A stretch of DNA of 64,000 nt from an uncultured Bacilli bacterium (GCA_910583945.1 CAJTYF010000004.1:3597-67596); one strand, 5' to 3'. Positions 34,283 to 52,659 are shown, numbered from the stretch's first letter. Notes: generated by a model from the letters alone, not told the origin. Numbers and translations: made by a program.

Positions 34283-34311
34283 ATGAATTTTAGCACCTAA
34301 ATAGCACCTAA
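34283..34311. repeat. left 29-bp direct repeat (candidate attL), contains TAGCACCTAA twice
   Basis: Directly abuts the stop codon of the first cargo gene (34314-34316). Confidence 0.6.
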
Positions 34312-34313
34312 TT

Positions 34314-35135
34314 TTATTTATGATTAAAAATTTCTAGTATTTTAAAATGATTGACTATTACTTTATCATCATCTTTTAAATCCTCTCTTATATATACGTT
34401 CTTTATATCTTTATAAAATTTTATCTCTTCATAAGTAAATTCTACAAACATTCTAAAGTTATCTTCTTTATCAACAATTAATGCTTGAAATTCCTTTGGT
34501 TTGTATTTTCTTTCGTTTCTTGAATATTCTGGATACCAATCTATTGCTCTAAAATCTCTTTTTCCTGTTAATATATTGTTTAAAACATCATCGTTAAATC
34601 TATATATTAAAGCATTTTCATATTTTGAATGTATTTTATTCCTATATCTACTAACAGGAACTTTTTGTTTTTCTAAATCTTTCATTCCAATAAACAATAA
34701 ATACTTTTGTACTCTTCTAAGATATTCAAGTTCTTGTTTACTATAATATTGTTCTTCATCTTTTGCTATACTGAATGATTCAGGGGAAGAATAAAGTGCA
34801 CTTACAACTTCTTCAAACGAATGAGCGTGACTATGCCCGACTACTGACTTTTTAATATATTTGCCATTTTCTTTCCAACCCATAAGATGCTTATAGGTAA
34901 AAGAATAATAAAATCCCGTAAAAGCAATGTCACCTAAAGCTTCAGAAAGCCTTGAATTAACTTCTAATTCATCTTTAGATTCTTTACTATTAAGTATTGA
35001 TTTTCCATTATAAAAATATACATATTCTAATGTCTGTCGTTCTTCGTCCCAAAATGGAGTTGGCAAATTATTTTTCTTAAATTTATCATATCGCTTAATA
35101 AATTCTTTATATTCTAATTCATTCATGCTTATCAC
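34314..35135 (-). CDS. hypothetical protein (element cargo)
   Basis: 273-aa ORF. No motif recognised. Confidence 0.5.
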   Translation of the reverse strand: MISMNELEYKEFIKRYDKFKKNNLPTPFWDEERQTLEYVYFYNGKSILNSKESKDELEVNSRLSEALGDIAFTGFYYSFTYKHLMGWKENGKYIKKSVVGHSHAHSFEEVVSALYSSPESFSIAKDEEQYYSKQELEYLRRVQKYLLFIGMKDLEKQKVPVSRYRNKIHSKYENALIYRFNDDVLNNILTGKRDFRAIDWYPEYSRNERKYKPKEFQALIVDKEDNFRMFVEFTYEEIKFYKDIKNVYIREDLKDDDKVIVNHFKILEIFNHK

Positions 35136-35151
35136 TTCTCCTAACTATTGA

Positions 35152-35592
35152 TTATTGATTCTCTTTAATTAACTTTATTAATTTTTCTTCAGTCAAGTTT
35201 TCTTCATATTCTATAACAAAATCTATATTAAATGCTGGTTCATCAAACTCAAAATTAGTATTAACAGATTTAATAAATTGATTATCGAATAAAGCCCCAA
35301 CTAAACTTTTATAGCACCATTCACAGCACATATCTTCTACAATATATTTTAATGATTTTAGTTTTATTTTTGAATTTTTATCAAAATTAACTATTATTGG
35401 ATATTTAGTTTTTAAATATAAATTAATGTATTTGATTATTATTAAAGGGCTTGTTGTTTCATCATAATCAATTCTTAACGTACTTAAAAAATCTTTAACT
35501 AATACTTCAACATCTATTATTCCATCTTGACTTAATAAATAATCTTTCAAGCCACTATCACATATATCATCCAATACAATTTCCATTTTCAT
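35152..35592 (-). CDS. hypothetical protein (element cargo)
   Basis: 146-aa ORF lying 17 nt upstream of the previous gene. Confidence 0.5.
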   Translation of the reverse strand: MKMEIVLDDICDSGLKDYLLSQDGIIDVEVLVKDFLSTLRIDYDETTSPLIIIKYINLYLKTKYPIIVNFDKNSKIKLKSLKYIVEDMCCEWCYKSLVGALFDNQFIKSVNTNFEFDEPAFNIDFVIEYEENLTEEKLIKLIKENQ

Positions 35593-35649
35593 TATTTTAA
35601 ATCCTTTCTTTTCGGCTTATTTTCGGTTTAATATCGGCTTATTTTCGGC

Positions 35650-49914: not shown

Positions 49915-51348
49915 ATGTATGATGGCAAACAAGTTGTACGAGTAGAAACACAATATAAAAAAGATGATCTATATAATATAGGTGTCGAAATGAAAGACCG
50001 AAAAGGTACAGGTAATTATGATATAGAACGTAAAGTTTATAATATAGAATATGTTTCACTTACTCAAAATAATTTATATCAAGAAGTGAAATACAATTTA
50101 AAGAAAAGAAAAATAGAATATTTAGATAGAGCAAAAACGAATCTATTAAATGGTGTTACATTCACAAGTGGTCCTGAATTTTTTCAAGCACTAGGAATGG
50201 AATTTGTAGATAGTGGTAGAACATATCACACAGGAGATAAAAAAGGTCAAACAGTTATGATACCGAAAATAAAATCAAAGGAAGATATCCCAAATGCTGT
50301 ATCTTTCTTTTTTGACTCCTGTATGGAATTTCTAAAAGATTATGTGGGCGAAGAAAACGTACTTCTTGCACAAATCCACTATGATGAAGATACCCCACAT
50401 CTTCAAGCCTATTTCGTTCCTGTTGTAGATATGGTTAAAAGAAAATGCTATGTCAAAGACAAAGATGGAAATGTTGTTAAAGATGAAGTTAAAAAGAAAG
50501 ATGGTACTACTTCTATTGTTCCCAAATTACTTCGTGATAGCAAAGGTAAAATTGTCTATGAGGAAGTCAAAGGCAAATTTCTAAATTGCGATCAGTTTTG
50601 GAAACAAAAAGGTGGTAAATTATCTTTTCATCAAATGCAGAATGACTTTAATAAATTTATAACTGAAAAAGGTTTTAATCTCTATCGAGGAGACATTGGA
50701 GCAAATAAACAAAATCAATCTAAATTAGAGTATGATATAGCCGAAAAAAAGGCTGAATTAGAAGAATTAAATCAAGAAAAGGAAAATACCCTACAAATAA
50801 TTGAAAACTCAAAAAATGGGATTAAAAACCTAGAAAAAGAGGTTGATAATGATTTACTAAATCCTGTAAAAAGAAAACTTGGTGGTTACAAAGAAGATGA
50901 TGTATCTAAAATCATAGAATATACAAAAGGTTTAGAAAATAAAGTTACTATTCTATCTACTGATAATAACAACAAAGACTTGATGATTGATAAATTAACA
51001 AAGGAAAATAAGAATTTAAAAAATAATAGCGAACTAACCAAAAAAAATAAAATCATTAAGGAGCAAAAAACTACCATCAATGAACAAAAACAAGAAATTG
51101 GTAGATTAAGCGAATTAGTAGATATTTTGAATAATACTATTGATAGTATGAAAATCAAGTTTGAAAAAGAAGTTGAAAAGTGGAAAAATCTATTTAAAAA
51201 AATGTGTAAGGCAATAGATAAAGTTTTAGGTAGAGATAAGCCTAAAGAACGTTTAGAAGATTATGAAGATATTGCCGATGACATTAACTATGGTTACTAT
51301 AACAAAAATAATGATAAAGACAAAGATGACTATGAAATTGGAATGTAG
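49915..51348 (+). CDS. MobV-family (Mob/Pre) relaxase
   Basis: 477 aa. HYDEDTPHLQAYFVP matches the MobV H.DE.TPH.H motif. Long coiled-coil C-terminus. RBS AAAGGAGGAA. Confidence 0.75.
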   Translation: MYDGKQVVRVETQYKKDDLYNIGVEMKDRKGTGNYDIERKVYNIEYVSLTQNNLYQEVKYNLKKRKIEYLDRAKTNLLNGVTFTSGPEFFQALGMEFVDSGRTYHTGDKKGQTVMIPKIKSKEDIPNAVSFFFDSCMEFLKDYVGEENVLLAQIHYDEDTPHLQAYFVPVVDMVKRKCYVKDKDGNVVKDEVKKKDGTTSIVPKLLRDSKGKIVYEEVKGKFLNCDQFWKQKGGKLSFHQMQNDFNKFITEKGFNLYRGDIGANKQNQSKLEYDIAEKKAELEELNQEKENTLQIIENSKNGIKNLEKEVDNDLLNPVKRKLGGYKEDDVSKIIEYTKGLENKVTILSTDNNNKDLMIDKLTKENKNLKNNSELTKKNKIIKEQKTTINEQKQEIGRLSELVDILNNTIDSMKIKFEKEVEKWKNLFKKMCKAIDKVLGRDKPKERLEDYEDIADDINYGYYNKNNDKDKDDYEIGM

Positions 51349-51371
51349 AAATATAAATTTAAAGAAAGGAT

Positions 51372-52583
51372 GTGATATCTATGTCAGTATTTCAAGTAAA
51401 ACCAAAAGAACAAACTAAAGATGGTCGCAAATGGATGTTTCAAGTCTATTACAAAGGATTAGATGGAATCAATAAAAAGTATCGTTCAAAAAAATTTTTA
51501 ACGAAGAAAGAGGCTCAAGAGGCTGAAAGACAATTTGTATTAACCATAGACCAAAGTATCAATCATAGAGATATGACTTTTAAAGATTTATATCTCGCCT
51601 TTTATGAATATCAAAGTGATAAGGTTAGAGAAACTACCATAAAAACTTATCGTGATAGAATTAAATATTTAGAATTATTCGATAAAATCAAATTAAGAGA
51701 ATTAAATATCAATCATTTTGAATTATGGAAAAAAGAAATAAATAAGTTACCTATTGCTACTTCCTATAAAAACGATTTATTCAAATTTGTAAAAGCAATT
51801 TTAAATTTTGGTAGAAGATGGTACGATTTTAATTTCGCACCTGTTTATAATAAAATGACTAATTTTACAGATCCAAATGAATTAAAAAAGGAAATGGAAT
51901 TTTTTACAATAGATGAATTTCACAAATTTATTTCTGTTGAAGATGATATAGTATTTAAACCTTTATTTGAAACTCTATATTATATGGGACTTCGTAAAGG
52001 AGAATTACGAGGGTTACAATGGAAAGATATTGATTTTAATAATAAAATGATGAAAATTCATAAACAAATACCATCAATTTATAGTATGGATAATTACAAA
52101 ATAAGTCCTTTAAAAACAAAAAATAGTAATCGTGATTTACCTATCAATGACTTACTAATATATGACTTAAAAAAATTGTATAATAAACAAAAGGAATATA
52201 AAAATTTTAGTCAAGAATGGTTTGTTTTCGGAAATGAATTGCCTATTCCTAAAGATGCTATTAGAACTAGAAAAAATAAAAATTGTAAACTTGCTGAAGT
52301 TAAACAAATTCGAGTACACGATTTTAGACATTCCTGTGCTTCATTTTTAATCAACTATGGTGCTAGTATTACTCTAGTAGCAAAATATCTAGGTCATACT
52401 AAAATTGATGAAACATTAAACACTTATTCACATATGTATCAAAATAAACTTGAAGATATAGTAAAACTCATCAATAAAAGCACTCTACAAGAAATAAATT
52501 CTATGGAAGAAGAAAATTATATTGATGAATCTTTACAATATGATATAGAAGATACAAAAGAAGATATAGAAATGTCTTTATAA
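51372..52583 (+). CDS. tyrosine-type site-specific integrase (second recombinase of the element)
   Basis: 403 aa. GLRKGELRGLQWKDID, HDFRHSCASFLIN and LGHTKIDETLNTYSHM supply the R..H..R..Y catalytic set. Ends 48 nt before the right-hand 29-bp repeat. Confidence 0.75.
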   Translation: MISMSVFQVKPKEQTKDGRKWMFQVYYKGLDGINKKYRSKKFLTKKEAQEAERQFVLTIDQSINHRDMTFKDLYLAFYEYQSDKVRETTIKTYRDRIKYLELFDKIKLRELNINHFELWKKEINKLPIATSYKNDLFKFVKAILNFGRRWYDFNFAPVYNKMTNFTDPNELKKEMEFFTIDEFHKFISVEDDIVFKPLFETLYYMGLRKGELRGLQWKDIDFNNKMMKIHKQIPSIYSMDNYKISPLKTKNSNRDLPINDLLIYDLKKLYNKQKEYKNFSQEWFVFGNELPIPKDAIRTRKNKNCKLAEVKQIRVHDFRHSCASFLINYGASITLVAKYLGHTKIDETLNTYSHMYQNKLEDIVKLINKSTLQEINSMEEENYIDESLQYDIEDTKEDIEMSL

Positions 52584-52591
52584 ATTTTAAA

Positions 52592-52630
52592 AAGAATGGT
52601 AGGCTCTTATGGGCTTACCATTCTTTTTTT
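52592..52630 (+). terminator. rho-independent terminator after the integrase
   Basis: AAGAATGGTAGGC-TCTTATG-GGCTTACCATTCTT followed by TTTTTTT. Confidence 0.7.
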
Positions 52631-52659
52631 ATGTATTTTAGCACCTAAATAGCACCTAA
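52631..52659. repeat. right 29-bp direct repeat (candidate attR)
   Basis: See the left repeat. Confidence 0.6.

Follow-up and report, generated by a model that had tools for sequence, protein, structure and literature searches.

A composite of two candidate integrative mobilizable elements, one nested in the other, at a predicted small RNA gene of an uncultured gut Bacilli bacterium

Integrative mobilizable elements (IMEs) with a MobV relaxase, IMEs that combine a PF02407 relaxase with the coupling protein TcpA, and composite IMEs have been described (Coluzzi et al. 2017, PMC5357655), as have integrated 'pCRESS' elements that encode virus-like Reps (Kazlauskas et al. 2019, PMC6668415). Here, we analyzed a strain-variable region of 18.6 kb that combines such modules. 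It lies in a stretch of 64,000 nt from an uncultured Bacilli bacterium (GCA_910583945.1 CAJTYF010000004.1:3597-67596), which is called the window below and to which all coordinates refer. Its host, a low-GC member of the Bacilli from the gut, has not been cultured and belongs to a reduced-genome lineage in which nothing has been characterized. With a probability of roughly 80%, the region consists of two IMEs, an inner one nested in an outer one, and the outer one is integrated in a small RNA (sRNA) gene. An earlier note on this DNA had described two IMEs accreted in tandem, or one hijacking the other's site, between 29-bp direct repeats. Both kinds of island and composite arrangements are already described. 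The value of the analysis is mostly corrective and current understanding is not overturned: it corrects the boundaries and the reading of the repeats, and for two island families of this lineage it defines the ends and cores exactly and predicts the attP sequences.

The outer island resembles the MobV IMEs of Firmicutes in its tyrosine integrase gene at one end with an adjacent Mob_Pre relaxase gene, the lack of a type IV secretion system (T4SS), a length of about 10 kb, variable cargo, and integration into a specific site, namely a conserved gene's 3' end (PMC5357655). It differs from them in its target, an sRNA terminator and not rpsI, rpmG, rplL or a tRNA gene, in a relaxase that scores under the NCBIfam MobV cut-off, in an AAA_25 ATPase and a cI-like regulator, and in its uncultured gut Bacilli host. 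Its attachment site has the architecture of a heterobivalent attP of the lambda type, with an integrase containing an arm-binding domain, a short core equal to attB, and proposed direct-repeat arm sites about 80-100 bp off on both sides; the likeness is one of sequence architecture, and the arm sites differ in being tandem decamers at 11-nt spacing. No sites for accessory factors were identified.

The inner island shares with the Rel_PF02407/TcpA IMEs (PMC5357655) and with pCRESS elements (PMC6668415) a Rep with HUH and superfamily 3 (SF3) domains, an FtsK/TcpA-like ATPase, an integrase, and a size below 10 kb. It differs from both in its low-specificity Int/Xis of the Tn1549/Tn916 type and in an explicit TAGTATTAC hairpin with iterons opposite rep. 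Its recombination module is like that of Tn1549 and Tn916 (Rubio-Cosials et al. 2018, PMC5871717) in the related Int (62% identity), the Tn916-type Xis, imperfect AT-rich ends, a 5-7-nt crossover, T-tract/A-tract targets, several insertion sites, and a homologous paired arm motif near the right end. In contrast to these elements, it has no conjugation module, measures 8.5 kb instead of 18-34 kb, carries Rep and FtsK-like mobilization genes, and its int gene runs through the putative arm sites. Finally, composite and nested IMEs (ICEscreen, PMC9585547) and IMEs in the transfer origin (oriT) of integrative conjugative elements (ICEs; PMC7563843) are similar in that a mobilizable element sits in a mobile element near the transfer origin. 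Compared with these cases, the host element here is an IME and not an ICE, the insertion lies about 25 bp upstream of the putative oriT block and not within it, and the inner integrase is of the low-specificity Tn1549 type.

Boundaries and nesting of the two islands

The insertion site was compared among public contigs that carry a glycosyltransferase (GT2) identical to that next to the region (52979-53782; n=23, with unlisted look-alike places counted under the locus they resembled). This neighbor served as anchor instead of the 735-aa Pnkp/RNA-ligase protein on the other side, for which an exact look-up returned no record. Two of the 23 contigs have an empty site, in which the glycosyltransferase gene is directly followed by the Pnkp/RNA-ligase gene (L002). 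The composite is present in eight (L001, L006, L008), a simpler island with integrase, MobV, AAA_25, a small open reading frame (ORF), a helix-turn-helix (HTH) gene and cargo in 11 (L003, L005, L007, L010), and other islands in two (L004, L009). L002 is a conspecific contig, and empty sites as well as alternative occupants were seen among conspecific contigs. Removal of 34162-52735 (18,574 bp) restores the L002 empty site with 2426/2427 identity, and the 60-mer across the junction is exact. Read against L002, both junctions contain the identical 14-bp core GCTCCTTCAGGGGG. Thus, the region is a genuine strain-variable insertion, and the integrated mobile region seen in the earlier note was confirmed by comparison with contigs lacking it. 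Its boundaries had been placed at the direct repeats; because the L002 junctions lie 104 bp (left) and 76 bp (right) outside them, the repeats are not the element ends. The mapped ends predict an outer attP …AAAGTGGAGCACATTATATCGTGCTCCTTCAGGGGGCGAAATTTTTTCGCACC… and a restored outer attB …CCCCCTGAAGGAGCCGAAAGGCTCCACTTTTTG….

The outer island is interrupted by the inner one. A contig from a different species (L068) encodes an integrase 97% identical to the outer integrase, has the same TAGCACCTAA pair as the repeats (see below), and contains DNA 94% identical to 39676-41149 and 49595-52850 of the window; both stretches are contiguous in L068. The target of the inner island is uninterrupted there (GTAACTTTT-TTCTA-AAAAGTTATAGG), and the spacer between the AAA_25 and MobV genes reads TTTTCATAAGAATTTTGTAACTTTTTTCTAAAAAGTTATAGGTAAAAAATGAACGAGG. 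Position 41121 of the window is the last base of GTAACTTTT, and the outer sequence continues with TTGAAAAAAGTTATAGG from 49603. The same adjacency of AAA_25 and MobV, with an uninterrupted MobV element, is found in L003 and L005. Since the outer halves are contiguous in L068, L003 and L005, the islands are nested and not in tandem: the inner one sits within the outer one, which comprises 34176-41121 and 49603-52749 (about 10.1 kb). The inner island was inserted at a palindrome, TAACTTTTT-N-AAAAAGTTA, that separates the MobV upstream region from the AAA_25 gene, and both of these were left intact. Of the earlier proposal of two IMEs, the two separate integrase-plus-relaxase modules stand, and tandem accretion or site hijacking does not. 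Also, MobV and its integrase had been taken as the full second module, which in fact owns 34176-41121 as well, with cargo, an HTH gene, a 79-aa ORF and AAA_25. The minus-strand genes at 34314-39551 therefore belong to the element, and the switch to plus-strand coding, formerly placed at the left repeat, occurs at about 39.9 kb.

The inner element was also found elsewhere. At least four further contexts contain an identical 429-aa Int. The identity to L018 is 100% over 7.47 kb, beyond which the flank differs; in L011 the backbone 45484-49602 is 99.7% identical, the left end 90%, and the cargo is a sortase instead; L020 is a copy with a sigma-factor gene as cargo. Alignments of the copies place the right end, …CTATATAACTTTT, at 49602 and the left end near 41116-41127. 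The ends …ATAACTTTT and AAAAGTTTAG… are combined with crossovers TTGAA, CAATT, GAAAC and ATTAT(G) and with at least four different flanks. The terminal inverted repeats are AACTTTT/AAAAGTT, and each junction consists of a T-tract, 5-7 variable nt and an A-tract. The inner element constitutes a discrete mobile unit, and both insertions have defined att junctions together with an empty-site counterpart, which is L002 for the outer one and the uninterrupted target in L068 for the inner one. The predicted inner attP is …CTATATAACTTTT-N5-7-AAAAGTTTAGTTTTTGAT…, and the predicted restored target is GTAACTTTT-N5-AAAAGTTATAGG. As a separate observation, the right flank in L020 (6455-6480) begins with TTGAAAAAAGTTA-GCAAAAAAT, close to the window flank TTGAAAAAAGTTATAGGTAAAAAAT before diverging, which may point to a preference for this palindrome, or to flanking bases having been carried over.

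Proposed arm-type sites and the predicted target RNA gene

The direct repeats reported in the earlier note are real and slightly longer than first stated, with 31/32 identical positions. Each contains the decamer TAGCACCTAA twice. This decamer occurs exactly four times in the window, is confined to the two repeats, and was expected 0.12 times; four occurrences were reached in 0/100 shuffles. A search with one mismatch returned only three further sites, which are unrelated and lie outside the region. A third, degenerate att copy had been suspected in 49531-49914. No TAGCACCTAA within one mismatch is present there; 49531-49602 is the right end of the inner element, and 49628-49914, including the palindrome that had drawn attention, is contiguous in L068 without the inner element.

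Comparable pairs accompany other islands. Nearly every occupied copy of the target RNA gene has a tandem pair of 8-10-mers at 11-12-nt spacing, located 70-100 nt from the core start, just within the island on the RNA-gene side. The sequence of the pair is specific for the island type (TTTAGGTGCT, CAACTACCAA, TAGGCGACAT, CTACCCATCAT, TTATGTAACAG, TAGGTACCCAAA and TAGATACTAT are examples), with at least 13 distinct types, and no pair was present at empty sites. In L074 and L075, which contain complete 3-kb islands, the island's own motif is found again near the far core in direct orientation, as in the window. These element-specific pairs at at least 13 islands, the far-core copies in L074 and L075, and the Arm-DNA-bind_4 domain of the outer integrase suggest that the repeats are most likely arm-type sites of a lambda-like attP, to which the integrase would bind, and not crossover sites. 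Apart from this, the islands in L075 (4590-7760) and L074 (~3 kb) each have one arm-site pair near the RNA gene and three pairs near the far core. L075 contains a further arm-like repeat (TTTTAGGTACAC…AAAATAGGT) past the second terminator, where another island was possibly accreted in tandem.

The outer core lies in the terminator hairpin of a predicted sRNA gene on the minus strand, on which it reads CCCCCTGAAGGAGC. A tRNA or tmRNA gene was rejected as target, there being none in the window. The promoter of the sRNA gene is near-consensus (11/12). The 23-mer GAATCAACCAAAACCCCCTGAAG from this gene is exactly conserved in 53 species-representative genomes of uncultured gut Bacilli, which are labeled "Tenericutes", "Erysipelotrichaceae" or "Candidatus Coprovivens", a few of them "Muribaculaceae", and come from mouse, rabbit, human and goat. 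Around the 23-mer, the promoter and both hairpins are conserved, with compensatory changes in 10 of the 17 predicted pairs. No Rfam family matched at its gathering score, and only noise was obtained at E up to 10. We conclude that the target is probably a conserved, unannotated sRNA gene of ~110 nt, as judged from these conservation patterns. Many of the 53 matches are at contig ends, as strain-variable insertions would cause. The gene is an integration hot spot shared by dozens of species, which also accounts for the assembly breaks there. Copies of the gene were located in the window (52710-52854, minus strand), in L002 (10930-11066) and in L023-L075, and at least 13 island types use it as a hot spot.

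The terminator sequence past CCCCCTGAAG varies with the occupant, and every island brings its own hairpin and U-tract. In the window, the 3' part of the terminator (52719-52735) is supplied by the island. Since the outer element carries its own hairpin and U-tract, the RNA gene would keep a terminator. Islands that target tRNA genes likewise replace the 3' end of their target gene by element DNA, and the outer island parallels them in this respect.

Genes and sites of the outer and inner islands

The features of both islands are given in Table 1. A Pfam scan of the composite, which covered ORFs of at least 60 aa, confirmed the gene content proposed earlier: an HUH protein of the Viral_Rep family, an FtsK-like ATPase with a weak match, Xis and Int of the Tn916 type, Mob_Pre, and a second tyrosine integrase.

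Table 1. Location of the islands, their recombination sites, genes and target in the window
Feature	Position	Strand	Basis or remark
Whole composite insertion, including one core copy	34176..52749		18,574 bp; outer MobV island ~10.1 kb plus inner island 8,481 bp
Outer att core copy GCTCCTTCAGGGGG, Pnkp side	34162..34175		identical 14-mer at both junctions; flank beyond core identical to L002
Native 3' half of sRNA terminator hairpin	after 34162..34175 core	-	
Left repeat, tandem TAGCACCTAA pair, 11-nt spacing	34280..34311	+	proposed far arm-type site of outer integrase, 104 bp from core
Two cargo ORFs, 273 aa and 146 aa	34314..35592	-	no family match
Fic-domain protein, SoFic defense candidate, cargo	35650..36831	-	Pfam Fic 2e-17; PADLOC SoFic 6.3e-48
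Adjacent ORFs, 452 aa and 127 aa	36746..38502	-	PHROG phrog_9827, unknown function, positions 125-581 and 2-112
163-aa membrane protein and 185-aa cI-like HTH regulator	38555..39551	-	HTH_19/HTH_3; divergent from plus-strand module
79-aa ORF (candidate excisionase or regulator) and 317-aa AAA_25/DnaB-like ATPase	39889..41095	+	AAA_25 profile match; conserved pair
Inner left junction GTAACTTTT / ATTAT / AAAAGTTTAG (target half, 5-nt crossover, left terminal repeat)	41113..41136		comparison with L068 and other copies
Inner island: Tn1549-type Int/Xis, Rep, FtsK-like ATPase, variable cargo	41122..49602	+	8,481 bp; absent from L068
Inner left arm-type pair (A)TTTTACTAC / AATTTACTAC, 11-nt spacing, putative	41188..41208	+	repeat comparison
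Inner cargo, seven ORFs of 95-282 aa	41312..45464	+	no confident family match; putative membrane protein, putative lipoprotein, weak HTH
Hairpin with TAGTATTAC in loop, then three GTAGCAT repeats	45560..45609	-	Rfam RF03070 (ssNA-helicase), 57.4 bits vs gathering score 41.5
Rep, HUH endonuclease and SF3-type P-loop, circovirus-like	45736..46746	+	PF02407 (Viral_Rep), 28.8 bits vs cut-off 26
404-aa membrane-anchored FtsK/HerA-like ATPase, candidate TcpA-type coupling protein	46712..47926	+	FtsK_SpoIIIE 4.8e-4
Tn916-type excisionase	47927..48163	+	PF09035 3.1e-19
Tn916/Tn1549-family tyrosine integrase, 429 aa	48241..49530	+	PF02920 4.2e-33; PF00589 3.7e-36
Inner right arm-type pair, within 3' end of int ORF, putative	49440..49460	+	homologous to Tn1549 right-end pair
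Inner right junction ATAACTTTT / TTGAA / AAAAGTTATAGG	49594..49619		comparison with L068 and other copies
MobV upstream region, proposed oriT and promoter	49628..49914	+	conserved block GAACGAGGCACGTTTTG, then stem-loop, then TGAAAGTGGCGATAGTGA
Divergent MobV-family relaxase, 477 aa	49915..51348	+	Pfam PF01076 (Mob_Pre), 46.5 bits, cut-off 25.5
Outer tyrosine integrase, 403 aa, arm-binding N-domain	51372..52583	+	Phage_integrase 8.2e-26; Arm-DNA-bind_4 (Pfam) 3.4e-8; 97% identity to L068 integrase
Right repeat, tandem TAGCACCTAA pair	52628..52659	+	proposed int-proximal arm-type site, 76 bp from core
Predicted sRNA gene, ~110 nt, integration target	52710..52820	-	promoter 52854-52826, two hairpins, invariant GAAUCAACCAAAACCCCCUGAAG, terminator
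Outer att core copy, sRNA side	52736..52749		junction comparison

The inner Int matched the structures of Tn1549 Int (6EN0, 1.9e-134) and of the Tn916 Int N-domain (1B69, 1.1e-26), and its 62% identity is to the Tn1549 Int on pMG2200. Tn1549 has 11-bp AT-rich imperfect inverted repeats, a 5-6-bp crossover for which homology is not needed, and TTTT-n6-AAAA as target (PMC5871717). The second long repeat of the window (41183-41217 and 49435-49469, 32/35 identical) contains paired TTTACTAC motifs, and this paired repeat is located near each sequenced end in all copies of the inner element examined. A literature search for the arm-site sequence of Tn916 returned nothing, and the right end of Tn1549 on pMG2200 was compared instead. 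It has GTTTTACTACTCCATTTACTACTTTTGA between the int stop codon and the terminal repeat, and a similar terminal sequence. Because of the pair near each end of all copies and the homologous pair in Tn1549, we read the TTTACTAC pairs as putative arm sites, to which the inner integrase would bind. The Tn916 Int N-domain presumably binds GAGTAGTAAATTC, which was not used as evidence here. The inner int ORF continues across the arm-type sites and stops ~70 bp short of the end of the element, and the Tn1549 int gene on pMG2200 is annotated with 1,194 nt (~397 aa), stopping just before the homologous arm motif. Pfam detected no Tn916/Tn1549 conjugation genes in 41122-49602. Thus, the inner element is not an ICE of the Tn916 family and has only the recombination module of that family.

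The Rep of the inner element aligns over residues 7-304 with the Rep of porcine circovirus 2 (PCV2; 7LAR, E 5e-10) and contains WALTINNP, HIHIF and YVRK as motifs I-III and GHTGVGKT as Walker A. The RF03070 hairpin is located ~130 nt upstream of rep on the opposite strand, and the motif is also present in L011 and L020, in which the cargo block is swapped. Its sequence TAGTATTACC is one base off the cognate 10-mer of duck circovirus Rep, which is TATTATTACC (PMC9973303). Thus, the elements of an origin of the CRESS (circular single-stranded DNA with an encoded Rep) type, a hairpin with a nonanucleotide of the (T/A)A(G/T)TATTAC type and iterons near rep, are present, and the nonanucleotide-bearing sequence CTAGTATTACC is a candidate Rep substrate. 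Homologues with 40-42% identity are annotated as replication initiators of circular inovirus-like genomes from rodent feces. Two such circular genomes (L076, PQ006124.1, 1840-1880; L077, PQ006184.1, 930-985), 'bajarodino virus' annotated as Inovirus and carrying Zot, have the TAGTATTAC hairpin and short iterons upstream of rep; the RF03070 model scores under its gathering score on them. We propose that Rep very probably nicks the TAGTATTAC hairpin, which would be an origin of replication and/or transfer. The orphan Rfam motif RF03070 (ssNA-helicase) is not discussed in the main text of the paper in which it was described; the observations above connect it with a Rep origin of the circovirus type in both bacterial islands and inovirus-like genomes. 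The inner element as an integrated filamentous phage was considered and rejected, since Zot and coat genes are missing from the conserved backbone and the cargo is not constant. GSTGSGKT, a Walker A motif, and hydrophobic segments at the N-terminus are visible in the FtsK-like ATPase, and no solved structural relative of it was found. It is tentatively assigned to the TcpA type because of its gene context (PMC5357655).

In the outer island, HYDEDTPH of the relaxase aligns with HLDESTPH of MobM (4LVI), an HxDE..PH motif. The stem of the stem-loop upstream of mobV shows compensatory changes among the window, L068 and L003, and we suppose that this conserved block is the oriT. Each island contains a relaxase candidate recognized by homology together with a putative origin, which is Mob_Pre with the stem-loop block in the outer island and the PF02407 Rep with the TAGTATTAC hairpin in the inner one. 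The 79-aa/AAA_25 pair is kept in L003 (77 aa and 318 aa); L068 has an AAA_25 ORF and matches the DNA of both genes (39676-41149) at 94%. The position of the 163-aa and HTH genes is also occupied in L003 and L068. Since the 452-aa and 127-aa ORFs match the C- and N-terminal parts of one PHROG family, they represent a split or frameshifted cargo gene.

Taken together, the outer island would integrate by site-specific recombination between its 14-bp core and the identical sequence in the sRNA terminator hairpin, with the N-domain of the integrase bound to the tandem TAGCACCTAA pairs, which lie 104 bp (left) and 76 bp (right) inward of the cores. For transfer, the divergent MobV would act on the stem-loop region just upstream of its own gene and use the mating pore of a helper. 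Int and Xis of the inner island would act, in the manner of Tn1549 and Tn916, on the AT-rich imperfect terminal inverted repeats (…TAACTTTT / AAAAGTTTA…) and the paired arm sites near each end, with a 5-7-nt crossover that needs no homology and insertion at T-tract/A-tract sites. After excision, Rep would nick the hairpin 130 nt upstream of its gene and start rolling-circle processing of the circle. The product may serve transfer, with Rep as relaxase and the FtsK/TcpA-like protein for coupling, or replication, or both.

Alternative explanations

Several results weigh against two mobilizable elements. The predicted inner circular junction (right end, N4-8, left end) had 0 matches in metagenome contigs and 0 in viral contigs, and the outer attP junction had 0 matches in viral contigs. 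The right end of the inner element alone also had 0 matches in metagenome contigs, and because the element is absent from that collection, the negative result there is uninformative on excision. The relaxase of the outer island is divergent: the Mob_Pre match covers only residues 131-174 of the 477 aa, the NCBIfam MobV match (78.6 bits over residues 5-264) is under the cut-off of 100, and the N-terminal catalytic region gave no alignment to MobM 4LVI. No excisionase of the outer element was identified. In the inner island, the FtsK_SpoIIIE match is weak (20.1 bits, under the cut-off of 24), and the nonanucleotide is on the strand opposite rep, whereas it is on the same strand in the circular genomes. 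No VirB4-, VirD4- or Tn916-type transfer genes were detected among the composite ORFs scanned, and no helper T4SS or conjugation genes among the ten largest other ORFs of the window, in agreement with the earlier note that neither a Tn916 conjugation module nor a T4SS is present. Since neither island has a transfer apparatus, a helper would be needed.

The alternative in which two IMEs stand in tandem by site-specific accretion or att-site sharing, with the 29-bp repeats as att, draws on the high significance of the repeats, on the fact that IMEs of Firmicutes commonly accrete in tandem at a single site (PMC5357655), and on the possible occurrence of such accretion at the same RNA gene in L075. 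We regard it as very improbable: the empty-site junctions lie outside the repeats, between the modules the window has neither an additional copy of the outer core nor one of TAGCACCTAA, the outer genes flank the inner island on both sides and are contiguous in L068, L003 and L005, and the inner element has its own distinct ends and occurs alone at other sites. It is less improbable, but still quite unlikely, that the composite is a fixed, decaying and immobile remnant whose repeats and genes are relics. The missing circular junctions, the split cargo gene and a possible separation of mobV-int from an outer upstream promoter by the inner insertion are consistent with decay. All recombination and mobilization ORFs are intact, however, the site is empty or differently occupied in conspecific contigs, a copy of the inner element with 100% identity lies at a second site, the outer integrase is 97% identical in another species, and the arm copies are 31/32 identical.

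The strongest competitor concerns the inner island, which could be an integrated rolling-circle replicon, that is, a 'pCRESS'-type plasmid or a filamentous-phage satellite, whose Rep only replicates and whose ATPase serves partition, export or packaging. Its Rep is a full-length circovirus Rep homologue, and a canonical hairpin with TAGTATTAC and an iteron origin adjoins rep. The closest annotated Rep relatives initiate circular inovirus-like genomes with the same hairpin nonanucleotide, and because of these relatives at ~40% identity a purely replicative role of Rep is as plausible as a relaxase role, which is a further point against an inner IME. Moreover, such Reps have been described from integrated elements that were regarded as integrated plasmids (PMC6668415). 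Against this, the conserved backbone lacks capsid, Zot and morphogenesis genes, the cargo differs between copies, and in a streptococcal survey both IMEs with PF02407 Reps also had a coupling protein, which was the basis of the relaxase call (PMC5357655). Replication and transfer roles are also not exclusive. We consider the replicon possible but on balance unlikely, and prefer two IMEs, one nested in the other.

A wider scenario is more speculative, and we think it rather doubtful that both of its parts hold. In RF39-like gut Bacilli, a whole guild of islands, each with its own terminator, integrase and arm specificity, may use the sRNA gene, whose invariant GAAUCAACCAAAACCCCCUGAAG occurs exactly in 53 species representatives, as a dedicated landing pad. 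The inner element, as a parasite of another parasite, may preferentially target the terminator palindrome just upstream of the MobV transfer origin of a different IME. If so, the inner island with its Tn1549-type Int and circovirus-like Rep would ride along whenever the outer IME is mobilized, and the orphan Rfam motif RF03070 would gain a function as the Rep nick site of such islands.

Some minor observations were made in the outer island and beyond. A ~150-bp segment between the MobV-upstream blocks (49680-49830) is present in the window and L068 and absent from the L003-type island; its palindrome AAGTACCTAGTAGGTGCTTA holds an inverted 8/10 match to the arm decamer, which may be a regulatory integrase site or due to chance. 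A 26-bp near-perfect palindrome, AATTGGTCAGTCGCGACTGACCAATT (33975-34000), is located ~60 nt upstream of the chromosomal Pnkp/RNA-ligase gene, and a close copy, AATTGGTCAGTCACGACTGACTAAT (38485-38510), just upstream of the 127-aa ORF of the island. L068 matches the surroundings of the latter (38482-38583) at 84%, and the two palindromes may act as a common operator. A reverse transcriptase of 330 aa (RVT_1, 1.5e-24), unrelated to the islands, is encoded on the minus strand at 17201-18193, in chromosomal DNA of the window.

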